A stretch of DNA of 58,317 nt from an uncultured archaeon (GCA_964599215.1 CAZRDV010000005.1:1-58317); one strand, 5' to 3'; shown: positions 23,971-39,062, numbered from the stretch's first letter. The notes: generated by a model not told the origin, from the letters alone. Numbers and translations are program-made.

Positions 23971-25767
23971 ATGGATATAATGGATTACAAGAAATTACTG
24001 AAATGCGGTATTGAAATCCACCAGAGGCTGGATACAAAGAAACTGTTCTGTGAATGCTCTTCTACTCAGGAAGAACAAAGCAATGCCTCTATCAACCGCA
24101 GGCTGAGGTCAGTACCTGGGGAGCTTGGTGAGGTTGATCCTGCTGCTCTTTTTGAGTTCCTGAGAAGCAAGGAATTTGTTTACAGGATATCGCCTAGAGA
24201 ATCTTGCCTAGTGGAATGTGATGAAGAGCCGCCGCATCCGATAAACAAAGAGGCATTAGGCATTGCATTGCAGATATGCAAGCTACTGAAATGCACTATA
24301 CCTGAAGAAATCCATGTAATGAGGAAGACTGTGATAGATGGATCTAATACTTGCGGGTTCCAGAGAACAGCAATAATAGGCCTTAATGGCTGTTTAGAAA
24401 CGAACTTGGGCAAGATAGGCATACCTACTGTATGCCTGGAAGAAGAAGCAGCAAGGATAGAAGAAAAGAGCAATGGCAGGGTTTTCTATAAGCTAAGCGG
24501 GCTTGGGATTCCGCTGGTGGAGATAGCAACCTCGCCTGACATTGTTTCGCCAGATCAGGCAAGGGATGTTGCTGAAAGGCTAGGCTTGATTTTACGCTCA
24601 TGCAAGGTCCAGCGAGGCATCGGCTCTATACGACAGGATATAAACATCTCTATAAAGGAGGGAACAAGGATCGAGATAAAGGGCTTTCAGGAGCTTGGTA
24701 GAATAGAAAAATTGATTGAGAACGAGGTAGCAAGGCAGCTCTGTCTTATTGAGATAAAGAATGAGTTAAGAAAAAGGGGCTTTGCTAAAATCAATGAATA
24801 CCATGATGTTACAGCACTGTTCAAAAGCACGAAATGCAACTTCATAAGAAAGGCACTTCAGCATGGAAAGGTACTTGCAGCATTGCTGCCGAAATTCTCA
24901 GGACTCTTGAAAAAAGAATGCGGTGACAGAACCTTTGGCAAAGAGCTTTCTTCATATGCAGAGGCTTATGGCTATGGGATAATGCATTCGGACGAAGATA
25001 TAGAAAAATATTCTCTGTCATGGGAGTTCCAGAAGCTCAGGGATGAAATGAAAGCCGGCAATAAGGATTTGATACTAATAATTGCAGGAGAGAACCCTGA
25101 AAAGGCAATGAGCTCTGTTATTGAAAGAGCACAATACTGCATAATCGGAGTGCCGCCTGAAACAAGGGTTAGCGATGGCATTGGCAGCAAATACACAAGA
25201 CCGCTGCCTGGGGCAGAGAGAATGTATCCTGAGACGGACGTGCCTGCTATAAAAACCGATCTCAAAGGCATAGCAGCACCTAGAACATTACTAGATAAGG
25301 AGAAAGACCTGGAGAAGAAGCTGTCAAAAGAGCTTGCATCTCAGATGATAAGGTCGCGTTACTACCCGCTCTTCGAGGAATTCCAGAGATTTAGAATTGA
25401 ACCAAGCGTGATAGCAGGCACGCTGCTGTCAACAATGAAGGACCTCAGGAGAAAGGGATTTGCTGTTGAGCGTGTAGGTAAACAGGACCTGGAGAAAATT
25501 TTTTTCTCTGTAGAGAAGAATCTAATTTCAAAGGATTCGATACCTGCAGTTATCGAGGCTCTTGCAAAGGGAGAGAGCATAACAGGCACGCTTAACAAAT
25601 ATCAGCAGCTAGATGAAAAAGAGCTGCAGGCAATAATAAACAGTGTTGTTAAAGCTAATCCCGGCAAGAAAGAATCAATGCTCATGGGATTGGTAATGGA
25701 AAAGATCAGAAACAGAACAAGCGGTGAACGTGTTCTAAAACTACTTAGGAAAAAATCCAGGCAATAA
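23971..25767 (+). CDS. gatE: Glu-tRNA(Gln) amidotransferase subunit E
   Basis: GIEIHQRL, RKTVIDGSNTCGFQRT, CLEEEAAR, GIPLVEIAT, RPLPGAERMYPETD. Confidence 0.97.
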   Translation: MDIMDYKKLLKCGIEIHQRLDTKKLFCECSSTQEEQSNASINRRLRSVPGELGEVDPAALFEFLRSKEFVYRISPRESCLVECDEEPPHPINKEALGIALQICKLLKCTIPEEIHVMRKTVIDGSNTCGFQRTAIIGLNGCLETNLGKIGIPTVCLEEEAARIEEKSNGRVFYKLSGLGIPLVEIATSPDIVSPDQARDVAERLGLILRSCKVQRGIGSIRQDINISIKEGTRIEIKGFQELGRIEKLIENEVARQLCLIEIKNELRKRGFAKINEYHDVTALFKSTKCNFIRKALQHGKVLAALLPKFSGLLKKECGDRTFGKELSSYAEAYGYGIMHSDEDIEKYSLSWEFQKLRDEMKAGNKDLILIIAGENPEKAMSSVIERAQYCIIGVPPETRVSDGIGSKYTRPLPGAERMYPETDVPAIKTDLKGIAAPRTLLDKEKDLEKKLSKELASQMIRSRYYPLFEEFQRFRIEPSVIAGTLLSTMKDLRRKGFAVERVGKQDLEKIFFSVEKNLISKDSIPAVIEALAKGESITGTLNKYQQLDEKELQAIINSVVKANPGKKESMLMGLVMEKIRNRTSGERVLKLLRKKSRQ

Positions 25768-25802: not shown

Positions 25803-26171
25803 ATGGATATATTCGGGCTTTCCCTGAGTATAAGCAGCGTATTGCTCTACCTGATAGATGCACTGATAGCATGGGTAGCACTTATTATTGCAGACAGTCT
25901 TATTGCGCATAATATAGAAGCCAAGAAAACGCTGATACTTTCGCTGGCCTCGTTCTTTGTTGTACCATTTCTGCTGCCGCTGCTGGGACTTGGTGCTCTC
26001 GGCGCTACGATTGTTGTCTCTGCAGTAGTATGGATAGGGCTTGGGGAACTGCTGCTAGAATCTGACTCAATGATGAAGCTCAAGGTATTGGCAATAGGTT
26101 TTGTTGTGTACTATGTTGTTTCCCTGTTCCTGGCTGGATATATCTTCAGCTTTTTATCAGGCTTCCTATAA
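25803..26171 (+). CDS. Hypothetical 4-TM membrane protein
   Basis: Almost entirely hydrophobic 122 aa. Confidence 0.75.
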   Translation: MDIFGLSLSISSVLLYLIDALIAWVALIIADSLIAHNIEAKKTLILSLASFFVVPFLLPLLGLGALGATIVVSAVVWIGLGELLLESDSMMKLKVLAIGFVVYYVVSLFLAGYIFSFLSGFL

Positions 26172-27411
26172 GGCTTCTTTCTGCCCTGGTTATTTTCACG
26201 TTCACTGCCTCTCCGAAGCCAGTTTTGCCTGAAATCACGATTGGCTTGTATGCATGATTCCTTGCAATCCAGTTTTTCTTCTGCTTGTTGTATTCATCTA
26301 CTAGTGCAGGGCCTGACCAGTTAAGCCATTTCCTGTTCCTCTCCAGAGCTATCTCATCAACGAGCTTAGAAATAACCCTGCTCCTGTCCTTTCTTAGCTG
26401 TACTGGTAGCTGCCGCATAGCTGCTGCTTTTGTTTTTGGCCTTGGCCCGAACCTGGATACATTTACAAAATCAGGCCTTGTTTCTCTTACGAGTTCAAGA
26501 GAAGAAGCAAAATCATCATTACTCTCGCCTGGAAATCCTACTATTACGTCTGTCCATATCGTGATATCTGGAATATTTTTTTTGAATTTTGAGATTATTT
26601 CTTTGAAAGCAGAAGCTGAATAATCTCTGTTCATTCTTTCCAGTACCTCATCACTGCCGGACTGAACAGGCGGGTGAAGGAACTTGAACACGTGCTCGTT
26701 TCTATAGATATCTATCAGCTCATCAAGTATAGGCAACACGCTCGAGGGGTTCATCATGCCCAGGCGAAGAAAATAGTTTCCATCCACCTCAATTATTTTT
26801 TTCAAAAGATGTGGTAATGTTATTCCGTTATAATCATATGCAGCAACATCCTGGCCTGTTAGCCAGAATTCCCTGCACCCATCTTTATAGGCAGATTCTA
26901 TCTCTTTTACAATCTCCTCAGGCGGATAGCAGAACAAGGAGCCTTTTGCAAGCTTTGTTATGCAGTAAGAGCAGCTCTGAGAGCAGCCAGAGCAGATTTC
27001 TACTATATTAACAACAGGGTTCTTTCTTAGCTTGGGAAGGCAGGCTTTGCTTATCTTCTCCTTGCCTATTATTTCTATTCGCTCTGTGTTTTCAACAACG
27101 TTTCCTATCTCGTTTATTTTATTTGTGCTTACAAGACTTGCAGACGGTGCAATCCTTCTCAGCAGCTCAGGCTCTGCTTCTGGCATGCAGCCAGTTATTA
27201 TGAGCTTCTTTTCAGGATATTTTTCCTGAACAGACCTTATCCTGCTTATCAGCTTGTTTTCTGTCCTCTCCTTGACAATACAGGTGTTGATAATTATTAC
27301 ATCAGATTTCTCTATGTTATCTACCAGCTGATAGCTGCTCAACAGGCCTGCCATTATCTCGCTGTCGTTTCTGCTTGAACTACAGCCGTATGTTTCTATG
27401 TAGATTCTCAT
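26146..27411 (-). CDS. mtaB: Radical-SAM tRNA methylthiotransferase (MtaB/e-MtaB type)
   Basis: UPF0004 ETYGC...NTC...ITGC, CxxxCxxC (CSQSCSYC), QSGSD.VL..MNR, IVGFPGE, C-terminal TRAM domain. Confidence 0.93.
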   Translation of the reverse strand: MRIYIETYGCSSSRNDSEIMAGLLSSYQLVDNIEKSDVIIINTCIVKERTENKLISRIRSVQEKYPEKKLIITGCMPEAEPELLRRIAPSASLVSTNKINEIGNVVENTERIEIIGKEKISKACLPKLRKNPVVNIVEICSGCSQSCSYCITKLAKGSLFCYPPEEIVKEIESAYKDGCREFWLTGQDVAAYDYNGITLPHLLKKIIEVDGNYFLRLGMMNPSSVLPILDELIDIYRNEHVFKFLHPPVQSGSDEVLERMNRDYSASAFKEIISKFKKNIPDITIWTDVIVGFPGESNDDFASSLELVRETRPDFVNVSRFGPRPKTKAAAMRQLPVQLRKDRSRVISKLVDEIALERNRKWLNWSGPALVDEYNKQKKNWIARNHAYKPIVISGKTGFGEAVNVKITRAERSLIGSLIKS

Positions 27412-27438
27412 AGAAATCAATTACAAGGAAAGATTTAA

Positions 27439-27816
27439 TTAATACAACCTTATCTTAAGAGAACGAATGTCCTCTCTTTCTACCCTGCCTCCGAGTAGAT
27501 CTATTACAGGTTCTCTGTATTCATTAGGGTTTAGTATATGCTCTTCTTCATGGCTCAGAACAAATCCCCAGCCTTTAATGGAAGCATTACCCACCAGATT
27601 ATATGGTATCTTTTCCCTTGGTAAAATGGCAATCTCAGTATTTACATCTGTATGTGCAAATGCAAACGGATGGTATCTTTCTTCGTCAAATTCCCTCAGT
27701 TTAATATTCTTGTAATCAGGCTCAGGATTTAATCTGAGTTCTACAGAATCTCCTAATGACCCTTTATAGAAATCATCCAGTTTCTTATCAGTATATACAG
27801 GGATACGATGATACAT
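27439..27816 (-). CDS. Hypothetical protein with HExxH motif
   Basis: VLSHEEEHILNPNEY. Confidence 0.6.
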   Translation of the reverse strand: MYHRIPVYTDKKLDDFYKGSLGDSVELRLNPEPDYKNIKLREFDEERYHPFAFAHTDVNTEIAILPREKIPYNLVGNASIKGWGFVLSHEEEHILNPNEYREPVIDLLGGRVEREDIRSLKIRLY

Positions 27817-27854: not shown

Positions 27855-28856
27855 TCATCTCTGCGGCTCGATGATGACCTTCATCGAATCCTTTGCATCA
27901 GCAACCAGCCTGAAGCCAGTGCCTGTTTCAGCCAGGCCTAGCCTGTGGGTTATCATGCCCCTTACATCTATTTTTTTCTCCCTTATCATGCCCAGCGCCT
28001 CTTTCAGGTCCCTTGGTCCAGCAGCATAGGATGTCATGACTGTTATCTCGTTTTTCCAAAAATCGTTTATAGGTACATAGATATCAGACATCGGCACTGC
28101 AAAGAACAGGACAGTCCCGCCTTTATCTACTGAGAGCAGTGCCTGCTTTGCTGCTGATTCAGCACCTGTACAGACTATGACTTTATCAGTTTTGCGGTCT
28201 GCCTCAATAAGTTTTTCATCTAGTTCTTTGGCATTAATTACGTGATCTGCGCCGAATCTCTCGGCCATGTCCAGCCTGTAATCACTTATGTCAGTTGCAA
28301 TTACCCTTGCTCCCTTTAGCTTTGCTAACTGTATGTGAAGAATGCCGACAATACCAGCACCAAGAACCAGCACGTCATCGTTCGACCTTATATTTGCAAG
28401 CCTCTGGCCACGGATAACAGTGCCCAATGGCTCGATGAATGTCCCGTCTTCGTAGGAGACGCTGTGCGGCAGCATCAATATACCGTTATACGTATTTATT
28501 TCTGGTATTCTCACGAATTCTGAAAAGCCGCCTGGGTAGAACTTTGTTCTATGCAAAGTCTCGCATGCAGTATGATGGCCATTGATGCAGTAGTGGCAGG
28601 CATCGCAAGGCACATGATGCGAAACAAAAACACGGTCACCAACCATGTATTTCTCGTTCTTGGATTCCTCAACAATGCCGGTCATCTCATGGCCAAGAAC
28701 AAGCGGAGCCTTTTTTATACGATACCATTCCAGAACATCAGAACCGCAGAGACCGCATGCCATTGCCTTTACCAGCAACTCGTTCTCATCAATAATCGGC
28801 TTTGGCATCTCTTCTAGGCGGACATCACTGTTATTGTAGTACATTGCCACGCGCAT
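27855..28856 (-). CDS. Zn-dependent MDR dehydrogenase (polyol/sorbitol-DH-like, NAD-type)
   Basis: CGLCGSD, GHE, structural Zn CxxCxxC...C, GAGIVG, Asp at DISDYR. Confidence 0.93.
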   Translation of the reverse strand: MRVAMYYNNSDVRLEEMPKPIIDENELLVKAMACGLCGSDVLEWYRIKKAPLVLGHEMTGIVEESKNEKYMVGDRVFVSHHVPCDACHYCINGHHTACETLHRTKFYPGGFSEFVRIPEINTYNGILMLPHSVSYEDGTFIEPLGTVIRGQRLANIRSNDDVLVLGAGIVGILHIQLAKLKGARVIATDISDYRLDMAERFGADHVINAKELDEKLIEADRKTDKVIVCTGAESAAKQALLSVDKGGTVLFFAVPMSDIYVPINDFWKNEITVMTSYAAGPRDLKEALGMIREKKIDVRGMITHRLGLAETGTGFRLVADAKDSMKVIIEPQR

Positions 28857-28929
28857 TGGATAAGCTATTGCATGCAAGAATTTAAAACAAAGCAAGAGTT
28901 TTCCAACACAATATTTTTAAAAACTTTTC

Positions 28930-29142
28930 TTGCATCCACTTCTTATGGAAGATGCTCAGGATTCTTCTAAACGCCCTTTCTGGAAACGTGAAATTGTGCA
29001 CGGTTCAATGGATGAAATTCTCTCATGCGAAATAAGGAACAGTGGATATTCATTACCTATTCGTTATATAACAGGAGCTATGGAAGAAAATGACCCTGGT
29101 GGAAGAAGATCCCATGAAATTACTAAGAGGTATAGGCAATAG
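28930..29142 (+). CDS. Possible small hypothetical protein
   Basis: Only sizeable ORF in the lsrF-dehydrogenase gap; no recognisable motif. Confidence 0.35.
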   Translation: MHPLLMEDAQDSSKRPFWKREIVHGSMDEILSCEIRNSGYSLPIRYITGAMEENDPGGRRSHEITKRYRQ

Positions 29143-29170
29143 ATTCTGACAATTTTTCTAATGTATTTAG

Positions 29171-29962
29171 CTAACTCTTACTTTTCTCCCTATTAAATAT
29201 CTCCTGTGCTTCTCTTGCTGTTGCATTCAGGTGGATGATTGCTCTGAGCGCTTTGACCATTGCAACAGGATAAGCATGCTGCCATACATTCCTGCCCAGG
29301 TTCACGCCAATAGCGCCTTTCTGTATGCCGTCATAGACAAAATCAAAGACCTCTCGTTCTGTGTCCACCTTCGGCCCGCCTGCCATTACTATCGGTGCTG
29401 TACAGCCGTCTACAACCTTTTCAAAGTTCTCGCACCAGTACGTCTTGACGATGCTGGCACCAAGTTCTGCTGCTATTCTGCATGCCAGTGCAATATAACG
29501 AGCATCTATCTTTTTCATCTCTTTTCCAACAGCAGTAACAGCCATAACAGGCATGCCATACTCTTCAGCCTCGTTAACAAGGTTTCCTAAGTTCAGCAAG
29601 GACTGATGCTCATTGCTGCTGCCGACAAATACAGACATGCCTACTGCATCTGCATTTAGCCGCACTGCTTCTTTCACTGATGTTGTTATCCCCTCATGAG
29701 GCAGCTCATCTGGCAGAGCCATGCTTGTGCCGCCTGATACGCGAAGGATTATTGGTTTCGTCCTAACTGGATCTATGCAATTGCGCAGAACCCCTCTTGT
29801 TACAAAAAGGGCATCACAGTATGGAATCAATGGCTTTACTGTTTCTCCAGGCTTCTCTAACTTTGTTGTAGGTCCCTGGAAGTAGCCATGATCTATAGGC
29901 ATGAATAAGCAATGACCATCAGGTGTTAGCTGCGATAGCCGGTTCTTCTTTCCCCAGTCCAT
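29171..29962 (-). CDS. lsrF: LsrF-type 3-hydroxy-5-phosphonooxypentane-2,4-dione thiolase (class I aldolase fold)
   Basis: MDWG..NRL, DHGYFQGPTT.LE, EHQS, AVTAVGK, RY..LA.RIAAE.GA.I.KTY (catalytic Lys), GRNVWQ all match the LsrF subfamily. Confidence 0.88.
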   Translation of the reverse strand: MDWGKKNRLSQLTPDGHCLFMPIDHGYFQGPTTKLEKPGETVKPLIPYCDALFVTRGVLRNCIDPVRTKPIILRVSGGTSMALPDELPHEGITTSVKEAVRLNADAVGMSVFVGSSNEHQSLLNLGNLVNEAEEYGMPVMAVTAVGKEMKKIDARYIALACRIAAELGASIVKTYWCENFEKVVDGCTAPIVMAGGPKVDTEREVFDFVYDGIQKGAIGVNLGRNVWQHAYPVAMVKALRAIIHLNATAREAQEIFNREKSKS

Positions 29963-30034
29963 ATTACCGATTATCTAGTAACAGAAATTTATTAAAAACA
30001 TGGCTTATCCAAGATTGATAATAGTCAATAGCCC

Positions 30035-31045
30035 TTATTTAGATACTAAGCTTGCTATCTTGTCTGGTTTGATTATGCCTTTTTCTGTGATTATGCCGCT
30101 GATAAGGCCTGCAGGCGTGACATCAAAAGCAGGATTCTTGGCAGGCGACCTTGAGCAGACGAGCACTCTTCTCAAACTTCCGCCCTCGTCAAGGCCTGTT
30201 TGATAGAGCACTTCTTCTTCGCTGCGCTCCTCTATTGGGATATCCCTGCCGGATTTGCAATTAATATCAAATGTAGATAGAGTTGCAGCTACGTAGAAAG
30301 GTACGTTAAAATGCCGTGCAACTATTGCTTTCTCTAGCGTGCCTATTTTATTTGCAGCATCGCCATTTGCTGCTATGCGATCAGCTCCAACAATTACCAT
30401 ATCAATGCCTTTCTGCATGTAGTATGCGCCGGCATTGTCAGGAATTATTGCGTGCGCGATGCCTTCGTTCTTCAATTCCCAGGCAGTAAGCCTTGCGCCT
30501 TGGCTTCGCGGCCTTGTTTCATCAGCATAGACAAAAACCTTTTTGCCAGCTCTTTTTGCCTTGTATATCGGTGATAAAGCAGTTCCCCAGTCAGTAAACG
30601 CAAGCCAGCCGGCATTGCAGTGCGTCTCTATTTTCATGTTGTCCTTTATCAGTGTGTTGCCGTATTCGCCGATCTTCTCGCATGCCTTTACATCCTCATC
30701 AGCAATTTTCTGAGCCTCTTCTGACGGGACCTTGGAATTATAAACACGGTTAACAGCATAGAACAGGTTCTGTGCAGTTGGCCTTGACTCTGTGATTAGC
30801 TTCTTTGCCCTTTCCAGTGCATCTTTATCGCCGCAGTCAAAGAATGCCTGGGCCATTGCAAAACCAGCTGCAGAGCCTATTGCTCCTGCACCGCGAACAG
30901 TCATTTTACTGATAGCGTCAGCTGTTTCTACATGATTTTTGCACTCCTGGATCCTGAAGAAAAAGGGAAGCTTGTTCTGGTCAATCATCTTTACAATCCC
31001 GTTCTCAAACCAGACAGTTCTATATGCTTCGCTGCCGACAAGCAT
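30035..31045 (-). CDS. mtnA: Methylthioribose-1-P / 5-deoxyribose-1-P isomerase
   Basis: MTVRGAGAIG, SRPTAQNLF, THCNAGWLA..DWGTAL, ETRPRSQGARLTAWEL, GADRIAANGD.ANKIGT. Confidence 0.95.
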   Translation of the reverse strand: MLVGSEAYRTVWFENGIVKMIDQNKLPFFFRIQECKNHVETADAISKMTVRGAGAIGSAAGFAMAQAFFDCGDKDALERAKKLITESRPTAQNLFYAVNRVYNSKVPSEEAQKIADEDVKACEKIGEYGNTLIKDNMKIETHCNAGWLAFTDWGTALSPIYKAKRAGKKVFVYADETRPRSQGARLTAWELKNEGIAHAIIPDNAGAYYMQKGIDMVIVGADRIAANGDAANKIGTLEKAIVARHFNVPFYVAATLSTFDINCKSGRDIPIEERSEEEVLYQTGLDEGGSLRRVLVCSRSPAKNPAFDVTPAGLISGIITEKGIIKPDKIASLVSK

Positions 31046-31055
31046 GAATAACCTT

Positions 31056-31081
31056 GGAAAGAAACTTTTATAATTCTTTCC
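31056..31081. promoter_or_regulatory. Divergent promoter with an 8-bp inverted repeat bracketing a TATA box
   Basis: GGAAAGAA-ACTTTTATAA-TTCTTTCC; a second TTTAAAAA at 31082-31089 precedes pfkB. Confidence 0.55.
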
Positions 31082-31111
31082 TTTAAAAAATTTTTCTTTT
31101 ATTAATTAATC

Positions 31112-32002
31112 ATGGTTGATATTGTTATTGTCGGGTCAGTTGCATTTGATACAGTAGAAACACCATTCGGTTCTGTCAAAGAAGCTCTGGGCGGCTCTGC
31201 TACGTATGCTTCCTTGGCTGCAAGCTTTTTTTCAAAACCCGGTATTGTTGCTGTGGTTGGCAACGATTTTAATAATCATAACGTATTCCATACAAACAAT
31301 ATCTGCACAAAGGGCCTGAAGACCGTAGAGGGCAGAACTTTTCGATGGAGCGGCTATTACGAATACGACATGAACCAGGCACATACCATACAGACAGAGG
31401 AGAATGTTTTCAAGGATTTCTTACCTGATATACCTGAAGAATACAAAAATGCCAGATATGTCTTTCTCGGGAATATAGGACCGGAATTGCAGTTGCACGT
31501 ACTAAAGCAGATGAATAACCCGATAGCAATAATGGATGTAATGAATTACTGGATAGAAAGAACAAGAGACCGGTTATTTGACGTTATGAAGAAGTGCAAC
31601 ATACTCTTAATGAACGATTCAGAGGCAAGAGAGCTCTTTAAAACAACAAACCTGATAACAGCAGGACAAAAGGCACTGAAGATCGGGTTACAGGCAGTAG
31701 TCATAAAAAAAGGCGAGCACGGAGTTCTTCTATTCACTAAAGATAGAGTATTTTCACTGCCTGGGTATCCGTGCGAAAACCTTAAGGATCCAACCGGCGC
31801 AGGCGACAGCTTTGCAGGTGCATTTACAGGATATCTATCCAAGAACGGTATTAATGAAGAGAGCCTACGCAAAGCAGTTGTGTACGGATCAGCTGTTGCC
31901 TCTTTCAATGTCGAGGATTTCAGCTTCAATAATCTTAAAAGGATAACAATCAATGATATAGAAAACCGCTATAAGGAATTCAGGAATCTCATGACTTTTT
32001 AA
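31112..32002 (+). CDS. PfkB/ribokinase family kinase (possible nucleoside or sugar kinase)
   Basis: [30 protein letters not shown]. Confidence 0.93.
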
Positions 32003-32021
32003 TGTCATATTTAGTGATAAG

Positions 32022-33266
32022 ATGGATTACGAAGTCAAAGATATAGGGCTTGCAGACCAGGGCAAGCGTCAGATAGAATTAGCTGAGATGCAGATGAAGG
32101 GGCTGATGAAGATAAGAGAGAGATTCGAAAATGAAAAGCCTCTTTCAGGCATCAGGGTCGGCATGGCACTTCACATTACAAAGGAGACTGCAGCACTTGT
32201 CAGGACCTTACACGCAGGCGGAGCAGAGGTTGCAATAACCGGTTGTAATCCACTGAGCACGCAGGATGACGTGGCAGCTGCACTGGCAGAACAGGGGTTT
32301 CATGTCTATGGCTGGAAAGGCGAAACAAAAGAAGAGTACTACAAAAACCTGAACAGGGTCCTTGATTTCAGGCCCCATGTAACAATAGACGACGGCTGCG
32401 ACCTTGTGTCAGAGATACACCTGAAAAGAACAGACCTGTTAAAAGAAATAATTGGCGGTGCAGAAGAAACAACAACCGGCATTATAAGACTGCGTTCCAT
32501 GGAGAAGGATAATGCACTGAAATACCCCATAATAGCTGTCAACGATTCAAAAACAAAGCATCTTTTTGATAACTATATCGGCACTGGTCAGTCCACAATA
32601 GACGGCATACTCCGCGCTACGAACATACTTATAGCAGGAAAGAATTTCGTGGTGTCTGGCTACGGGAACTGCGGCAAGGGTGTTGCAACGCGCGCAAAGG
32701 GAATGGGGGCAAATGTTATTGTAACAGAAGTAGACCCGTTCAAGGCACTGCAGGCAGCTACAGACGGATTCCGTGTCATGCCAATGGCCAAAGCAGCAAA
32801 TATAGGCGATATATTTGTTACAGTTACCGGAGACAAGCATGTACTGTCATTAGACAGCCTGAAAAAAATGAAAAACGGCGCAATAGTTGCAAACAGCGGA
32901 CACTTCAATATAGAGATAGACATAAAAGGACTTGAGGGCATTGCCAAAAAAAGAAAGATAAGGCCTTTCATGGATGAGTATTCCTTTGACGGTAAAAAAC
33001 TATTTGTTCTTGGCGAGGGCAGGCTGATAAATCTGGCAGCAGCTGAAGGCCATCCATCAGAGATAATGAGCATGTCCTTCATGAATCAATGCCTTGCAGT
33101 AGAATACCTTGTAAAGAACAAGGGCCTTGAACCAAAGGTCTATACACTGCCTAAAGAGGTTGATGATATGATAGCAAAAATCCAGTTAGAGGCAATGGGC
33201 GTAGAGATTGATACGCTCACAAAGGAGCAGAGCAGATATCTCAATTCTTGGGACGAAGGCACTTAA
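32022..33266 (+). CDS. ahcY: S-adenosylhomocysteine hydrolase
   Basis: [45 protein letters not shown]. Confidence 0.98.
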
Positions 33267-33314
33267 CAATGCACTTAACTATAAAAATCTTGTTATGCTA
33301 ATTATTTTGGTACA

Positions 33315-34097
33315 ATGATAGGCATCATAGGTGGGTCAGGGTTTTATTCGCTACTAGATAAGGCTGATGAAAAAGAGGTAGAGACTCCTTTCGGAAAACC
33401 AAGTTCAAAGATTACTATAGGAAAGATCGAGGGCAGTGATGTCGCCTTTATCACACGCCATGGCAAGAAGCACGAAATACCTCCGCATAAAATCCCGTAT
33501 AAGGCAAATATCCAGGCATTCAAAGACCTGGGTGTTGAGAGGATTATATCGCCTACAGCTGTTGGCTCCCTGAAGAAGGAGATAAAACCAGGTGATTTCC
33601 TTGTTCCTGACCAGTTTATCAGCTTCACGCACAGAGACGACAGCTTCTACAACGGGCCTGGCACAGTACACATCTCTCCGGCTACTCCGTATTGTCCGGA
33701 CTTGAGCAAAATAATAGTTGATGAATGCAGGAAAATGGGTCTAACTATACATAGTGGCGGAACCCTTGTTGTAATACAGGGACCCAGGTTTGCAAGTGGT
33801 GCAGAGAGTGATTTCTTCCGCAACAATAACTGGGATGTTATAAATATGACGTCCTACCCAGAAATCGTACTAGCAAGAGAACTGGAAATGTGCTACGCAA
33901 ACATCGCCATAGTAACAGATTATGATACAGGCATGAAAGGCAACTCCGATATCAAGGCAGTAAGCATAGAAGAGATTATAAAAGTATTCAAGAAAAACAA
34001 TGAAAAGCTGAAGAAGCTGATATTCAATATTATACCAAAACTGCCTAAAGAGAGGAATTGCATCTGTGCAACTGCGCTGAAGGATGCCAAGGTGTAA
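33315..34097 (+). CDS. mtnP: 5'-methylthioadenosine / 5'-deoxyadenosine phosphorylase
   Basis: IGIIGGSG, RHGKKH..PPH, GPRFAS.AES, NMT..PE..LARE, VTDYD. Confidence 0.95.
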   Translation: MIGIIGGSGFYSLLDKADEKEVETPFGKPSSKITIGKIEGSDVAFITRHGKKHEIPPHKIPYKANIQAFKDLGVERIISPTAVGSLKKEIKPGDFLVPDQFISFTHRDDSFYNGPGTVHISPATPYCPDLSKIIVDECRKMGLTIHSGGTLVVIQGPRFASGAESDFFRNNNWDVINMTSYPEIVLARELEMCYANIAIVTDYDTGMKGNSDIKAVSIEEIIKVFKKNNEKLKKLIFNIIPKLPKERNCICATALKDAKV

Positions 34098-34099
34098 TC

Positions 34100-34630
34100 A
34101 TGAATATGGAAGAGCTTAGGAAATGTGTTACAGAGATACCTGACTTTCCAAAGAAGGGCGTTCTTTTCAGGGATATAACCACACTGTTGAAGAATGGAGA
34201 GGCACTGAAATATGCAACAGAGGAAATGAAGAAGCGATGCAGCAACAGGAAGATAGATGTGATTGTCGGCATAGAATCAAGGGGCTTTATTCTTGGCGGT
34301 ATAATTGCATACGAGCTTGGTGTTGGCTTTGTTCCTGTAAGAAAAAAAGGCAAGTTGCCAAGGGAGGTTGTGCGAGCGGAATACGAACTAGAATACGGCA
34401 AGGACCACATAGAGATGCACAAAGACGGCATTCTTGGCGGCCAAAACGTCATGATTATTGATGATCTTCTTGCAACGGGCGGTACAGCAGAAGCAGCTGT
34501 AAGGCTTGTTGAATCGCTGGGCGGCAGGGTTGTTGGCCTTGGCTTTGTTATGGAGTTGTCATACCTGAAGGGAAGGGAGAAACTAAAGAAGTATGATGTA
34601 TTCTCACTTATAGACTACGATAGTGGATGA
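34100..34630 (+). CDS. apt: Adenine phosphoribosyltransferase
   Basis: PDFPKKGVLFRDIT, GIESRGF, VRKKGKLP, IIDDLLATGGT. Confidence 0.96.
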   Translation: MNMEELRKCVTEIPDFPKKGVLFRDITTLLKNGEALKYATEEMKKRCSNRKIDVIVGIESRGFILGGIIAYELGVGFVPVRKKGKLPREVVRAEYELEYGKDHIEMHKDGILGGQNVMIIDDLLATGGTAEAAVRLVESLGGRVVGLGFVMELSYLKGREKLKKYDVFSLIDYDSG

Positions 34631-35502
34631 TAATGATAGTATTGGGCTCTGATGATTTTGCAGAGAAGCTTGCAAAGAGCCTTGACTCTGGTTTTGTCGC
34701 CCTTGAGAAAGTTGTCTTTCCTGACGGCGAGCTTCGCCCAAGAATACTAGGTGATGTAGATGAGCACGTTGTGCTGGCAGAGAGAATGGCATTGCCAACA
34801 GACCCTAACCAGTATTTAGTGCAAATACTCCTTACAATAAGGAACCTGAGAGCAATGAACGTCAGGCAAATCGACGTGGTAATGCCTTATTTTATTTATT
34901 CAAGGCAGGACAAGGTGTTCAGAAAAGGCGAGCCGTTCTCAGCAAAGCATGTTCTTGAACTGTTAGAAAAAGCCGGCGCTGACAGGTTCTTTACTGTCTC
35001 AAGCCATGCTGAAAGAGACAGTAAGATGCTCTCTATGACAGCAATGCCGGCTTACAATATAGACGGCTTCATTGCCATAGGCGAGTATTTGAAAGAAATT
35101 GAACTAAAAAATCCTATAGTAACAGGAGCTGACATGGGTGTCAGCAGGGCAACAGGCACAGTAGCTGGCATTCTTAATGCAGATGAATTTGCCTTTGAAA
35201 AGAAAAGGGATTTGGATACAGGCAATATCACAATGCATGGTGAGATGAATGCGAAGAACAGAGACGTCGTCATAGTGGATGATATCATAAGCTCTGGCGG
35301 AACCATGATAAAGGCGATAGAGATAAGCAGGCAGTCCGGAGCAGAGAAGATAATAGCTGCTGCTGTCCACCCTGTTCTTGCAAAAGGCGCTTATGAAAAG
35401 ATCTCGCCAATGGTTACCAGATTTTTGGCAACAGATACCATAGACTCTCCTGTATCAGAAATATCTGTTACAGGCAAGATAGCTGAGAAGATAAAGGGTT
35501 AG
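34627..35502 (+). CDS. prs: Ribose-phosphate pyrophosphokinase (archaeal type)
   Basis: FPDGELRPR, PYFIYSRQDKVF..GE, IVDDIISSGGTM, ATDTI. Confidence 0.93.
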   Translation: MIMIVLGSDDFAEKLAKSLDSGFVALEKVVFPDGELRPRILGDVDEHVVLAERMALPTDPNQYLVQILLTIRNLRAMNVRQIDVVMPYFIYSRQDKVFRKGEPFSAKHVLELLEKAGADRFFTVSSHAERDSKMLSMTAMPAYNIDGFIAIGEYLKEIELKNPIVTGADMGVSRATGTVAGILNADEFAFEKKRDLDTGNITMHGEMNAKNRDVVIVDDIISSGGTMIKAIEISRQSGAEKIIAAAVHPVLAKGAYEKISPMVTRFLATDTIDSPVSEISVTGKIAEKIKG

Positions 35503-35771: not shown

Positions 35772-35981
35772 TTATTTCCTCTTGGATTCCTTTCTGGCTT
35801 TTTTCTCTAGCTCCTTTACAGGCGTTTCCGGGAACAGTGGGGAGCGAAAACCGCATTTCCTGCACTGGTATATTCTGCCTCCCCAGAAGAACGGGTCCAT
35901 TCTAATGTCCAGAGAATTACATTTCGGGCAGACCTTGATACTCTCCTTCATACTGACTCTCCTTTTTAGGCTTTTTTTCAC
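35772..35981 (-). CDS. Small Zn-ribbon protein
   Basis: CPKC...CRKCG. Confidence 0.7.
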   Translation of the reverse strand: MKKSLKRRVSMKESIKVCPKCNSLDIRMDPFFWGGRIYQCRKCGFRSPLFPETPVKELEKKARKESKRK

Positions 35982-36378
35982 TGATTATTGTAACCACGAC
36001 CTCTCTGGTTCTATTTTCTATATCGAACTCCCAGAGCATGATGCTCTGCCATGTCCCAAGCAGAAGCCTGCTGCCTGACACAGGTATTGTTTTCTCTGTT
36101 GACGCAAGGCTTGCCCTTAGATGGGAAAAGGCATTGCTGGAATGGTTATAGAGCTTGTCGCCTGGCAGAAGCTTGCTAAAAAATCGCCTGAAATCCTCTA
36201 TCAGCAGTTTTTCATTCTCGTTCATGATCAGGCCTGCTGTTGTTGCTGGCAGAAATACATGGCACAGAGCTTCATCTGCCTTGCTCTCCTTGACTATCTT
36301 CTTGATATCCTCTGTTATGTCAACAAATTCATTCTTCATGGTTTCTATCTTTAGGTTTTTCCTGAACAACAAAACCAC
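35917..36378 (-). CDS. yjbQ: YjbQ / UPF0047 family protein
   Basis: FVDIT, TTAGLIMNENE, NAFSHLRA, LGTWQSIMLWEFD. Confidence 0.92.
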   Translation of the reverse strand: MVLLFRKNLKIETMKNEFVDITEDIKKIVKESKADEALCHVFLPATTAGLIMNENEKLLIEDFRRFFSKLLPGDKLYNHSSNAFSHLRASLASTEKTIPVSGSRLLLGTWQSIMLWEFDIENRTREVVVTIISEKKPKKESQYEGEYQGLPEM

Positions 36379-36441: not shown

Positions 36442-36984
36442 ATGGCTGAGAAAATAAAAATAGAAAACGTTGTAGCCTCTACTGACATCAAAAAAATCAT
36501 ATCCCTTGACAAGCTGCTCGGCATTCTGGAGGCCAGTGAATATGAGCCGGAGCAGTTCCCAGGCCTTGTCTATCGCTTGGATGAGCCAAGAGTCGCTACA
36601 CTGATATTCAGGTCAGGAAAGATTATATGCGTCGGTGCAAGGAGCACCTCGGATGCTAAAATTGCCCTGAAAAAAACAGTAAGGAACATAAAAAAGGTAG
36701 GGATAAGGATAAACGAAAACAACATCAAGGTCAAGATAGAGAACATAGTAGTTGCTGTGAACCTCGGGAAGGACCTTAACCTGGATCAATTGGCATTCCA
36801 GCTGGAAAACAGCGAGTACGAGCCTGAGCAGTTCCCAGGCTTGGTTTATAGAATACTTGAGCCGAAGGTTGCATTCCTTCTCTTTTCTTCTGGCAGGGTT
36901 GTCTGCGCAGGTGCCAAGAGCCTGGATTCAGTAAAAACAGCTGTGAAGAAGCTGGAAGCCAAGCTCCGCTCATTAGGCGTGTAG
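36442..36984 (+). CDS. tbp: TATA-box binding protein
   Basis: Two repeats of IENVVAS/YEPEQFPGLVYR/LIF.SGK..C.GA. Confidence 0.99.
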   Translation: MAEKIKIENVVASTDIKKIISLDKLLGILEASEYEPEQFPGLVYRLDEPRVATLIFRSGKIICVGARSTSDAKIALKKTVRNIKKVGIRINENNIKVKIENIVVAVNLGKDLNLDQLAFQLENSEYEPEQFPGLVYRILEPKVAFLLFSSGRVVCAGAKSLDSVKTAVKKLEAKLRSLGV

Positions 36985-37082
36985 CTTGGGCAAACCTTTT
37001 AAATGAAGCTCCAATGGAAATATAGCCGTTATACTAAAAAGGTTTTCTTGTATCTAATTATTCTGTATTTTTGGGTGTGGCC

Positions 37083-39062
37083 ATGGAACTAGCAGACAGG
37101 ATGGATGAGTTTCTCAGGGAGAAGTATTATAACGAATTACTCAAGGCAGCAAAGGAGGACAAGGTACTGGTTATTGATTTTTCAAGGCTTGATATATTCG
37201 ACCCTATCATAGCTGACCAGCTACTTGAGGATCCTGAGTCTGTTATAACTGCATTACAAACTGCCTCAAGCAACATAGTTCTTGGCGAGAAGATAAGGGT
37301 TCGGATAAAGAACCTGCCTGAGAGCAGGAACATAAGGATAAGGAACCTGAGGGCAAAGCACATAGGCAGGTTATGGTGCATTGACGCAATAATAAAATCC
37401 GCCAGCGAGGTGAAGCCTCAGGTATATGAAGCAGTTTTTGAATGCCCTGACTGCTCCACACGGATTACTGTTCCGCAGCTTACAAACCTTTTGCAGGCTC
37501 CTTTTGTCTGTGAGTGCGGAAGAAGAGGGGATTTTACACTTATCGAAAAGAAAATGTTTGATGCCAGATGGCTTAACGGCATGGAGCCGTTTGAGATAAC
37601 CTCAGGCGAGCAGCCAGGAGAGATAGCAATATACCTGAAAGAGGACCTGACAACACCAAGGATGCAGAAGAAAACAGACCCTGGCAACAGGCTGAGGATA
37701 GTAGGCGTGCTGAAAGAGCTGCCAAAGAGGATAAAGGGACGAATAAGTACAAAGCTTGATACCTACATTGAGGCAAACCATGTTGAGCCTGCTGAAATAG
37801 AATTCGAGGAGCTGGACATAACAGAAGAGGATGAAAAGAAAATAAAGGAGCTTGCTTCTGACCCCCTGATATACGACAAACTAAAGGCCTCTGTTGCTTC
37901 TGGCATATACGGGTTTGATGAAATCAAGGAGGCTCTTGTTATGCAGCTTTTCGGCGGCATTCCTCACTACATGCCTGACGGCTCAAGGATAAGAGGAAAT
38001 ATCCATATCCTGCTTACAGGAGACCCTGGTGTTGGCAAGACCATGATACTGAAGCTGGTATCCAGCATTGTTCCACGCGGCAGATACGTTTCTGGTTCTG
38101 GTGTTTCTGGTGCAGGCCTGACAGCAACTGTAAGGAAGGACGAGCTTATTGGCTCGTGGGTTCTGGAAGCAGGAGCACTCATACTCTGCAACAAGGGGCT
38201 TATAGCAATAGACGAATTCGACAAGATAAGCAAGGACGACCAGATAGCAATGCACGAGGCCACAAGCGTGGAAACGGTGAGCATTGCCAAGGCCTCGATT
38301 GTTGCCACACTGCCTGCCCAGACAGCTGTTCTTGCAGGCGCGAACCCTAAGCTTGGAAGATTCGATCCCTTTATGCCGATTTCAGAACAGATTCAAATAC
38401 CGGAAACACTAATGAGCAGGTTTGACCTTAAATTTGCAATCAGGGACAGGCCTGACAAGGCAACTGACGAGAAGCTTGCTGATTTTGTCACAAGCAGCAG
38501 GATAACGCCGGAGAGCACTGAGCCGGCAATTCCATTACACATTCTGAAGAAATATGTGGCTTATGCAAAGCAGATAAATGATATAGAACTGACAAGAGAG
38601 GCAGCTACAGCATTAAAGGATTTTTATGTTGATATGAGGTCCCGCTATGTTGGCGAGGAGATACCAACAGTGGCGATAACACTAAGGCAGTACGAGGCAT
38701 TGCTGAGGCTGGCAGAGGCATCTGCAAAGATAAGACTTGATAGAAAAATCACCATAGAGGATGCGCAAAGGGCAATAAACCTTATGATGTACTCACTTTC
38801 GCAGCTGGGTTATGACTACGAAACAAAAAGAATAGATATAGACAGGATAGAGAGCGGTGTTACTGCAAGCAGGAGAAGGAAGATAGGAATCATCCTAGAG
38901 ATTATCGAGTCCATGCAGAAGGAGGCAAGGGAGGTTGCAATAGAGGACGTGAAAGCAGAGGCAGAGAGCCAGGGAATAGAAAACGCAGATGATATTCTAG
39001 AAAGATTAAAGAGAGAAGGCAGTATATTCGAGCCGCGGCCAGGCTTTTTGCGGAAGGTGTAG
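37083..39062 (+). CDS. mcm: Replicative helicase MCM
   Basis: Zn finger CPDC...CECG, GDPGVGKT, IDEFDK, SRFD arginine finger, RQYEAL.RL.EA.A, C-terminal winged helix. Confidence 0.98.
   Translation: MELADRMDEFLREKYYNELLKAAKEDKVLVIDFSRLDIFDPIIADQLLEDPESVITALQTASSNIVLGEKIRVRIKNLPESRNIRIRNLRAKHIGRLWCIDAIIKSASEVKPQVYEAVFECPDCSTRITVPQLTNLLQAPFVCECGRRGDFTLIEKKMFDARWLNGMEPFEITSGEQPGEIAIYLKEDLTTPRMQKKTDPGNRLRIVGVLKELPKRIKGRISTKLDTYIEANHVEPAEIEFEELDITEEDEKKIKELASDPLIYDKLKASVASGIYGFDEIKEALVMQLFGGIPHYMPDGSRIRGNIHILLTGDPGVGKTMILKLVSSIVPRGRYVSGSGVSGAGLTATVRKDELIGSWVLEAGALILCNKGLIAIDEFDKISKDDQIAMHEATSVETVSIAKASIVATLPAQTAVLAGANPKLGRFDPFMPISEQIQIPETLMSRFDLKFAIRDRPDKATDEKLADFVTSSRITPESTEPAIPLHILKKYVAYAKQINDIELTREAATALKDFYVDMRSRYVGEEIPTVAITLRQYEALLRLAEASAKIRLDRKITIEDAQRAINLMMYSLSQLGYDYETKRIDIDRIESGVTASRRRKIGIILEIIESMQKEAREVAIEDVKAEAESQGIENADDILERLKREGSIFEPRPGFLRKV

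Follow-up and report, generated by a model that had tools for sequence, protein, structure and literature searches.

We analysed a 58,317-nt contig from an uncultured archaeon (contig C5; GCA_964599215.1 CAZRDV010000005.1:1-58317; hereafter the window), and in particular positions 27,855–34,097, where the gene of an LsrF-type enzyme lies between the isomerase gene mtnA and the gene of a zinc-dependent dehydrogenase. The contig belongs to a member of the Aenigmatarchaeota (DPANN) whose genome spans 784 kb, is 86% complete and holds ∼680 predicted genes. The cluster is made up of two divergent arms. On the minus strand lie MtnA, the 5-methylthioribose-1-phosphate/5-deoxyribose-1-phosphate isomerase (30035–31045), the LsrF-type class I (Schiff-base) enzyme (29171–29962) and the Zn dehydrogenase (27855–28895). 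On the plus strand lie a PfkB-family kinase (31112–32002), the S-adenosylhomocysteine (SAH) hydrolase AhcY (32022–33266), the 5'-methylthioadenosine (MTA) phosphorylase MtnP (33315–34097), adenine phosphoribosyltransferase (Apt; 34100–34630) and ribose-phosphate diphosphokinase (Prs; 34627–35502). The initial annotation had described mtnP, mtnA, an LsrF gene and an NAD-type Zn dehydrogenase gene in a divergent cluster, and profile scores place all four there; the kinase and AhcY genes, which sit between the two halves, had been overlooked.

Most of these assignments rest on curated models. In an NCBIfam profile search, MtnA scored 360.8 bits against TIGR00512 (cut-off 279), compared with 185.7 bits against the ribose-1,5-bisphosphate isomerase model TIGR00511 (cut-off 314); on these model scores we reject an isomerase of the pentose bisphosphate pathway. 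MtnP exceeds the cut-offs of two models (TIGR01694, 292.6 against 274.85; NF005876, 311.4 against 306) and presumably cleaves 5'-deoxyadenosine phosphorolytically as well as MTA. AhcY (TIGR00936, 627.6 bits, cut-off 497.6), Apt (NF002633, 246 bits, cut-off 224) and Prs (TIGR01251, 207.6 bits, cut-off 113) are likewise above threshold. The apt gene probably starts at an ATG near 34100, since the model match begins at residue 15–19 of an open reading frame (ORF) that opens with TTG. The lack of a class II aldolase and of LsrK, which the initial annotation had noted for the window, extends to the whole 784-kb genome, where there is no Aldolase_II (PF00596) match at E ≤ 1e-5, no match to the LsrK model NF008187 and no FGGY kinase of any kind.

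Escherichia coli LsrF cleaves its known substrate, 3-hydroxy-5-phosphonooxypentane-2,4-dione (P-HPD), with CoA to give dihydroxyacetone phosphate (DHAP) and acetyl-CoA. The window protein scores 338.9 bits against the LsrF equivalog model NF006081 (cut-off 297; 342.4 bits in a six-frame search of the genome), and is 48% identical to E. coli LsrF (PDB 3GKF) and 37% identical to MJ0400. Its scores against the models for 2-amino-3,7-dideoxy-D-threo-hept-6-ulosonate (ADH) synthase (TIGR01949, 195.8 bits, cut-off 299.45) and archaeal class I fructose-1,6-bisphosphate (FBP) aldolase (NF040816, 141.4 bits, cut-off 430) fall below threshold. It is the sole DhnA-family protein detected in this genome, as is the case in the other LsrF-positive genomes of the phylum. 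The catalytic and phosphate-binding residues of LsrF are the Schiff-base Lys203, the general base Asp57, and His58, Gly226, Gly227, Gly253 and Arg254 (PMC2728841). The window protein retains D57, H58, K203, Y205, G226, G227, G253 and R254 (E. coli numbering), and the equivalents of Lys203, Asp57, His58, Gly226/227/253 and Arg254 are also kept in 80 of 80 related loci. Archaeal class IA aldolases and ADH synthase use a Tyr as proton shuttle; in the alignment this column holds Tyr in MJ0400, but E. coli LsrF, the window protein and all 80 loci have a gap there.

A tree of 95 family sequences with MJ0400 as outgroup splits into two clades. The N-type clade (support 0.81) comprises the window protein and 81 others, and the D-type clade (support 0.93) unites E. 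coli LsrF with 12 proteins of a Nitrospirota-type phylum, which are 60–65% identical to E. coli LsrF and keep both its Asp251 and its N-terminal arm. The genomes carrying these D-type loci (L102-L113; genomes G255, G341, G362 and others) are without LsrK. Conservation within the N-type is high: the window protein is 68–79% identical to homologues in anammox bacteria, Nitrospirota, Desulfobacterota, Dehalococcoidia, Omnitrophota and Elusimicrobia, and in Bathy-, Had- and Thermoplasmata archaea, and close homologues number more than 8,000. Val207 of the E. coli enzyme is replaced by Cys in the window protein; this Cys, in the motif KTYWCENF four residues past the Schiff-base Lys, is invariant in the N-type clade and could be an acyl acceptor or a redox switch.

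The dehydrogenase (Pfam ADH_N and ADH_zinc_N) reaches no NCBIfam equivalog. Its best match is threonine dehydrogenase (Tdh; NF003808, 157.5 bits against 380; TIGR00692, 143.4 against 458), and the nearest solved structures are ketose reductase/sorbitol dehydrogenase, alcohol dehydrogenase, xylitol dehydrogenase and Tdh. The gene probably starts at the ATG at 28856, where the translation reads MRVAMYYNN as it does at the start of orthologues, and not at the TTG at 28895, from which the residue numbers below are counted. Invariant across 64 orthologues are the catalytic zinc ligands C50, H69 and E70 together with E155 of an EPL motif, the structural zinc site C97/C100/C103/C111, the GxGxxG motif (G179/G181/G184) and D202. 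R59, H93, H94, H317 and K339 are invariant as well and might make up a phosphate site. Since D202 is an Asp at the end of β2 the enzyme is predicted to be of the NAD type, and its Cys-His-Glu plus EPL-Glu ligation puts it, by sequence, in the class of the sorbitol, threonine and butanediol dehydrogenases. The members of that class oxidise secondary carbinols.

The LsrF-type gene and the dehydrogenase gene travel together. We surveyed 80 fetched N-type loci from Archaea and about ten bacterial phyla and found a Zn dehydrogenase orthologue downstream of LsrF, on the same strand and within 300 nt, in 34, and within 6 kb in a further 18, so that the dehydrogenase stands alongside LsrF in 52 of the 80 loci in all. 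Three loci have a partial dehydrogenase at a contig end, and in 12 a class II aldolase::SDR (short-chain dehydrogenase/reductase) fusion of ∼700 aa (NF006194) takes the place of the Zn dehydrogenase. At eight the contig ends within 1.5 kb of LsrF, and six have neither dehydrogenase nor fusion despite sufficient flank (these arrangements total 81, because locus L048 holds both the Zn dehydrogenase and the fusion). The same dehydrogenase family follows in 10 of the 12 D-type loci and the aldolase::SDR fusion in the other 2. The pairwise distances of LsrF and Zn dehydrogenase are correlated (r = 0.73, 64 gene pairs), and the two are a conserved, co-evolving pair.

We then asked which other genes accompany the pair, and MtnA stands out. 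Of 201 genomes of the window's phylum, 27 have an LsrF-type gene above cut-off. MtnA is present in every one of these 27, whereas among the 174 genomes without LsrF the count is only 19 (Fisher p = 2e-21, ignoring phylogeny). The distance between MtnA and LsrF is at most 5 kb in 18 of the 27, with several families represented. Of the 19 MtnA-positive, LsrF-negative genomes of this phylum, 11 have a class II aldolase-like gene, often beside MtnA, as do 9 of the 155 MtnA-negative genomes. One LsrF-negative relative (locus L122) has the order MtnA-AldII-MtnP-PfkB-AhcY, where AldII is the class II aldolase-like gene and an orthologue of the window's PfkB kinase sits between MtnP and AhcY; it is the window's neighbourhood with one aldolase-like gene in the slot of LsrF and the Zn dehydrogenase. 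In 20 regions around MtnA or the aldolase-like gene of LsrF-negative genomes, the Zn dehydrogenase was found in none.

In a second sample, of 151 genomes from the Nitrospirota-type phylum, LsrF and the class II aldolase are anti-correlated: class II aldolase-family genes occur in 3 of the 36 LsrF-positive genomes compared with 84 of the 115 LsrF-negative ones (p = 2e-12, ignoring phylogeny). In all three exceptions the gene is an aldolase::SDR fusion, which in two cases shares a contig with LsrF and lies ∼3 kb or less from it, and in the third (G324) is on another contig. Across phyla, 48 of 51 LsrF-positive genomes have MtnA, and a class II aldolase-family gene is wholly absent from 32. The initial annotation had proposed checking for co-occurrence of lsrF, the dehydrogenase and mtnA in genomes negative for LsrK and class II aldolase, and the outcome agrees with it as regards the pair (52 of 80 loci), MtnA in the LsrF-positive genomes of the phylum (27 of 27), the aldolase (3 of 36 against 84 of 115) and LsrK (0 of 99 LsrF-positive genomes, with no control genome above the cut-off either). 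The clustering of all three genes holds for the window's phylum, where MtnA is beside the pair in 18 of 27 genomes, but not for bacteria, whose pair is not clustered with mtnA.

We consider it moderately probable that the cluster is a unit for salvage of by-products of S-adenosylmethionine (SAM) and that, within it, the dehydrogenase and the LsrF-type enzyme together replace the aldolase of the DHAP shunt. In the first step of this scheme MtnP would phosphorolyse 5'-deoxyadenosine (or MTA) to adenine and 5-deoxyribose 1-phosphate (or its 5-methylthio counterpart), the adenine being recaptured by Apt with phosphoribosyl diphosphate from Prs, and in the second MtnA would isomerise the sugar phosphate to 5-deoxyribulose 1-phosphate (or methylthioribulose 1-phosphate, MTRu-1-P); for MtnP, Apt, Prs and MtnA these roles have curated-model support. 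The NAD-dependent Zn dehydrogenase, which we propose to be a 5-deoxyribulose-1-phosphate (and MTRu-1-P) 4-dehydrogenase, would then turn the methyl carbinol at C4 into a ketone. That oxidation at C4 of 5-deoxyribulose 1-phosphate yields exactly P-HPD, as the initial annotation had argued, is correct by constitution. Finally, the LsrF-type enzyme, which we propose to be a CoA-dependent thiolase, would form a Schiff base on the DHAP half of the 2,4-dione while CoA attacks the acetyl carbonyl, releasing DHAP and acetyl-CoA; with MTA as the input the product would be (methylthio)acetyl-CoA. Thiolytic cleavage would pull an unfavourable oxidation forward, as it does in the Tdh/Kbl couple. As to its history, the pair may be an old, laterally mobile module of anaerobes that was inserted beside mtnA in the Aenigmatarchaeota lineage, with loss of the class II aldolase-like gene.

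We favour this scheme for four reasons. The characterised member of the family needs a 2,4-dione, and in genomes without LsrK the family comes with a dehydrogenase; the pairing holds even for proteins that share 60–65% identity with that characterised thiolase; the presence of the pair goes with that of MtnA and excludes the aldolase that would normally use up the product of MtnA; and the dehydrogenase follows LsrF and not the class II aldolase, although a plain aldolase would yield the same aldehyde.

Several observations weigh against the scheme. Asp251 of E. coli LsrF lies 2.9 Å from the Schiff-base Lys203 and has been proposed as an LsrF-specific proton donor or catalytic residue, the position being Ser or Ala in aldolases (PMC2728841). 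The window protein has Asn here, as do 79 of the 80 related loci; the remaining one has Thr. The N-terminal domain-swap arm (∼31 residues of the decamer) is absent from the N-type clade: the window protein begins at residue 32 of E. coli LsrF, and the hidden Markov model (HMM) match begins at model positions 24–32. Because of the Asn and the missing arm the window protein is a variant and not a plain LsrF orthologue, so that the initial call of an LsrF ortholog stands as far as the equivalog model goes but not with respect to these two features or to the separate clade. Furthermore, 7 of the phylum's 27 LsrF-positive genomes also have a class II aldolase-like gene, mostly in the same cluster, and the two are therefore not strict alternatives. 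Locus L006, with the order MtnA-LsrF-ZnDH-AldII-MtnP, is a case in point; its divergent aldolase-like protein scored no more than 42 bits against aldolase, MtnB dehydratase and epimerase models and was assigned to no class. The module may thus cooperate with an aldolase or epimerase instead of replacing it, and the coexisting aldolase-like gene or fusion aldolase domain may be an epimerase, or may handle one of the two substrates in a parallel branch. Aldolase::SDR fusions are also present in many LsrF-negative genomes, which means that an aldolase plus a dehydrogenase can work without LsrF.

The distribution data have their own weaknesses. MtnA is nearly universal in the Nitrospirota-type phylum (145 of 151 genomes), where its co-occurrence with LsrF is therefore uninformative; bacterial loci do not have mtnA next to the pair; and the co-occurrence statistics ignore shared ancestry. 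The substrate of the dehydrogenase is deduced from genomic context alone, and both final steps of the scheme are drawn from sequence and context. The fate of the acetyl-CoA is a further difficulty, since an ADP-forming acetyl-CoA synthetase was not found in the window's genome (TIGR02717). The suggestion in the initial annotation that the route captures an energy-rich thioester for a fermentative symbiont accordingly finds no support here. Of the phylum's 27 LsrF-positive genomes, 24 have genes matching TIGR02717; the two closest LsrF-positive relatives of the window's genome do not. In place of the alpha domain of this synthetase, the genome has only a 141-aa CoA-binding protein (C11:19354-19611).

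The strongest competing explanation, which we nevertheless think unlikely, is a DHAP shunt that ends in a class I aldolase: the LsrF-like protein would split 5-deoxyribulose 1-phosphate or MTRu-1-P directly into DHAP and acetaldehyde or (methylthio)acetaldehyde, a toxic product that the Zn dehydrogenase would reduce or oxidise, and CoA would play no part. The association with MtnA and the exclusion of the class II aldolase fit this explanation equally well; the Schiff-base Lys and the Asp general base that retro-aldol cleavage needs are conserved; the supposedly LsrF-specific Asp251 is the residue that is Asn in the N-type clade; fusions of the RhaD-ADH type, which couple an aldolase to an SDR that acts on aldehydes, are a recurrent design that can stand in for the Zn dehydrogenase beside LsrF; and the missing ADP-forming acetyl-CoA synthetase would pose no problem. 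Against it counts the behaviour of the dehydrogenase, which is tied to LsrF (52 of 80 loci; r = 0.73) and occurs in none of the 20 MtnA or aldolase regions of LsrF-negative relatives, even though the same aldehydes arise there. Its zinc ligation is moreover of the polyol/threonine type, with an NAD-type fold, and not that of a classical Cys-His-Cys alcohol dehydrogenase. The D-type clade, which has Asp251 and shares 60–65% identity with a proven thiolase, is paired with the same dehydrogenase family, and the Tyr that archaeal class IA aldolases need is missing.

The dehydrogenase and thiolase might alternatively perform the same chemistry on another substrate, a reading we regard as improbable. 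Candidates are ribulose 1-phosphate, which MtnP and MtnA would supply from adenosine or other nucleosides and which would give DHAP and glycolyl-CoA, a 1-deoxy-pentulose 5-phosphate such as 1-deoxy-D-xylulose 5-phosphate (DXP), or a 6-deoxyhexulose 1-phosphate. AhcY, the PfkB gene with its likeness to nucleoside kinases, Apt and Prs all point to general adenosine handling; crystals of E. coli LsrF bind ribose 5-phosphate as well as ribulose 5-phosphate (PMC2728841); and in the Nitrospirota-type loci the pair is followed by a PfkB kinase and RpiB and not by mtn genes. On chemical grounds oxidation of DXP at C4 would likewise give P-HPD, but the archaea that bear the module use, as is generally known, the mevalonate pathway and have no DXP. 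The MtnA association in 27 of 27 genomes, together with its adjacency and its failure to match the ribose-1,5-bisphosphate isomerase model, favours 5-deoxy and 5-methylthio pentoses, and exclusion of the class II aldolase (a family that includes the enzymes of the DHAP shunt and MtnB) is best explained by a shared substrate.

It is very unlikely that the LsrF-like protein is the FBP aldolase of the cell or an ADH synthase of the 6-deoxy-5-ketofructose 1-phosphate (DKFP) pathway, with a neighbouring dehydrogenase unrelated to it in function. The protein is indeed the sole DhnA-family member detected in the genome, and the family includes the archaeal FBP aldolase and MJ0400. Either identity is rejected, however, on the model cut-offs (141 against 430 and 196 against 299) and on the absence of the catalytic Tyr of both enzymes, and the dehydrogenase pairing and the MtnA association would be left unexplained. 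Genuine processing of autoinducer-2 (AI-2) as in the E. coli lsr operon, for which only database names ('AI-2 aldolase', 'P-HPD thiolase') and the published interpretation of the homologue Sfum_2464 (PMC10787695) speak, has next to no probability and is rejected, as LsrK exceeded the cut-off of NF008187 in 0 of 99 LsrF-positive genomes (control genomes were also below it, and the control E. coli had neither LsrK nor LsrF above cut-off, which leaves the result without a positive control), the window's genome lacks any FGGY kinase and handles SAH by AhcY, and clustering of the flanks of 93 loci revealed no conserved group matching an lsr transporter or regulator (no search was aimed at LsrG, LsrACDB or LsrR).

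The 66-nt AT-rich intergenic region between the two arms (31046–31111) has TATA-like boxes in both directions and is a possible shared control region. LsrF and dehydrogenase are separated by 314 nt in the window (28857–29170), unlike most other loci, in which the two genes abut or overlap; an AT-rich TATA-like stretch lies ∼55–70 nt upstream of the dehydrogenase ATG. A 70-aa ORF in this spacer (28930–29142, plus strand, antisense) has no Pfam match and may be spurious. A 125-aa ORF (27439–27816, minus strand), 38 nt past the dehydrogenase, has no Pfam or NCBIfam match and carries an HExxH-like motif, HEEEH. The PfkB kinase of the plus arm matches Pfam PfkB, reaches no NCBIfam equivalog, scores 284.6 bits to a PfkB-family carbohydrate kinase (PDB 3KD6) and is probably a nucleoside (adenosine) kinase. 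Farther out lie flanking housekeeping genes: GatE (23971–25767, plus strand), UPF0047 (YjbQ-like; 35917–36378, minus strand), TATA-binding protein (36442–36984, plus strand) and the MCM helicase (37071–39062, plus strand); GatE, TATA-binding protein and MCM were assigned from their translations alone.

A radical-SAM methylthiotransferase of the MiaB/MtaB type (26146–27420, minus strand; Pfam UPF0004, Radical_SAM and TRAM) is also encoded just downstream and would, in this context, supply 5'-deoxyadenosine and SAH locally. The 784-kb genome has at least 11 radical-SAM proteins in all, TYW1 and five B12-binding proteins among them, a high load for ∼680 genes and one that would create a demand for disposal of 5'-deoxyadenosine. 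The five B12-binding (class B) proteins, of 435–504 aa, are spread over contigs C1, C2, C3 and C12; two are neighbours on C12, and another, on C2, is beside a 510-aa radical-SAM protein with an HMPTM-type zinc ribbon.

Other genomes show further neighbours of the pair and of mtnA. Orthologues of the window's PfkB kinase (more than 300 bits) come after the dehydrogenase in eight Nitrospirota-type loci (L024, L040, L042, L043, L058, L060, L066 and L068), in all of which a YkgJ-type Cys-cluster protein is encoded upstream of the pair and the kinase downstream; RpiB is also found downstream of the pair in seven loci of this phylum (L024, L029, L043, L058, L060, L066 and L068). Ten Brocadiales loci (L053, L057, L067, L070-L072, L074, L076, L080 and L081) have cysK and cysE directly upstream of the pair and on its strand, although as a single lineage they amount to one observation. 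CysE is serine acetyltransferase, a user of acetyl-CoA. In the bacteria with the pair (L082-L101), neither an aldolase nor the LsrF pair was found among the neighbours of mtnA, which is often followed by a homologue of (R)-S-adenosylmethionine hydrolase (DUF62) and an aminotransferase and which in anammox bacteria is preceded by an MTA/SAH-nucleosidase-like gene. This neighbourhood looks like a 'SAM hygiene' cluster.

The wider interest of an oxidative ending lies in the fate of 5'-deoxyadenosine, which is, to our knowledge, a product and an inhibitor of every radical-SAM enzyme. Every anaerobe thus needs a means of disposing of it. The established routes that we know of have only three endings: the class II aldolase of the DHAP shunt, DKFP (in methanogens) and excretion. 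The pathway is therefore open-ended in 32 of the 51 LsrF-positive genomes, where MtnA is present without a class II aldolase. An ending by dehydrogenase and thiolase would close this gap, avoid toxic acetaldehyde and (methylthio)acetaldehyde, and recover the two-carbon unit as a thioester, giving a route free of loose aldehydes whose products are DHAP, NADH and acetyl-CoA or (methylthio)acetyl-CoA. A very large and highly conserved family, labelled as quorum-sensing machinery in databases, would thereby gain a physiological role. We suggest more tentatively, and as something rather short of an even chance, that the LsrF-type enzyme and the Zn dehydrogenase form an ancient, laterally mobile housekeeping module that is the main means of 5'-deoxyadenosine and MTA disposal of strict anaerobes in both domains (anammox bacteria, Nitrospirota, Desulfobacterota, Dehalococcoidia, Bathy-, Had- and Aenigmatarchaeota, and others), from which the enterobacterial LsrF was recruited late to AI-2 metabolism. 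If so, thousands of 'AI-2 aldolase/thiolase' annotations in genomes without quorum-sensing genes would be mislabelled. The label already misleads: a transcriptome study of Syntrophobacter fumaroxidans calls the LsrF homologue Sfum_2464 an 'AI-2 receptor' (PMC10787695).

Parts of the proposed route have parallels in several known systems. The ADH synthase MJ0400 and the class IA FBP aldolase of Thermoproteus tenax (PDB 2QJG and 1OJX) share with the window protein the DhnA/DeoC-LacD superfamily, the Schiff-base Lys, the Asp general base and the phosphate site, but differ in having at most 37% identity to it and a Tyr (Tyr153/Tyr146) that is deleted in the window protein, whose scores lie below their family cut-offs. 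The RhaD-ADH-type aldolase/SDR fusion (NF006194, TIGR02632) stands directly downstream of LsrF, in the slot of the Zn dehydrogenase, at 12 of the 80 N-type loci and at 2 of the 12 D-type ones, which suggests an equivalent dehydrogenase role on a ketose 1-phosphate. Its folds (SDR and class II aldolase) are unrelated to that of the window's dehydrogenase, and it is absent from the window and common in LsrF-negative genomes. In the Tdh–Kbl couple, as in our proposal, a Zn-dependent medium-chain dehydrogenase/reductase oxidises a methyl carbinol that adjoins a substituted carbon, after which thiolysis by another enzyme takes off the acetyl group as acetyl-CoA. The window's dehydrogenase is, however, far from Tdh (157 against a cut-off of 380), and where Tdh–Kbl cleaves with a pyridoxal-phosphate enzyme the window would use a Schiff-base TIM barrel on a sugar phosphate.

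The LsrF enzymes of E. coli and Salmonella (PDB 3GKF, 3GLC and 4P2V) share with the window protein the HMM family, the TIM barrel, the Schiff-base Lys and the lack of the class IA Tyr, and they convert P-HPD and CoA to DHAP and acetyl-CoA, the reaction proposed here. The window protein, 48% identical and N-type, differs from the LsrF of the lsr operon in its Asn251, its Cys207 and its lack of a swap arm. The origin of the P-HPD also differs, since in the lsr operon LsrK and LsrG make it from AI-2 and in the window the dehydrogenase is proposed to make it from 5-deoxyribulose 1-phosphate. Full-text literature searches returned no paper joining LsrF, P-HPD or the thiolase to 5-deoxyribulose, methylthioribulose, MtnA, 5'-deoxyadenosine or MTA, and the description of 5-deoxyribose salvage makes no mention of an oxidative LsrF branch (Beaudoin 2018, PMC6079011). 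What we propose as new is thus an oxidative-thiolytic ending, built from known enzyme families, of the DHAP shunt or 5-deoxyribose salvage. That pathway, which consists of MtnP or MtnK/DrdK, MtnA/DrdI and the class II aldolase Ald2/DrdA (Beaudoin 2018, PMC6079011; North and co-workers, PMC10986504), is like the window in its inputs, 5'-deoxyadenosine and MTA, in its first two enzymes and in its product DHAP, and the related locus L122 has it in the same neighbourhood. It differs in relying on a metal-dependent class II aldolase, in place of which the window has two enzymes, and whereas the shunt releases acetaldehyde or (methylthio)acetaldehyde, the route proposed for the window would deliver acetyl-CoA and one NADH.

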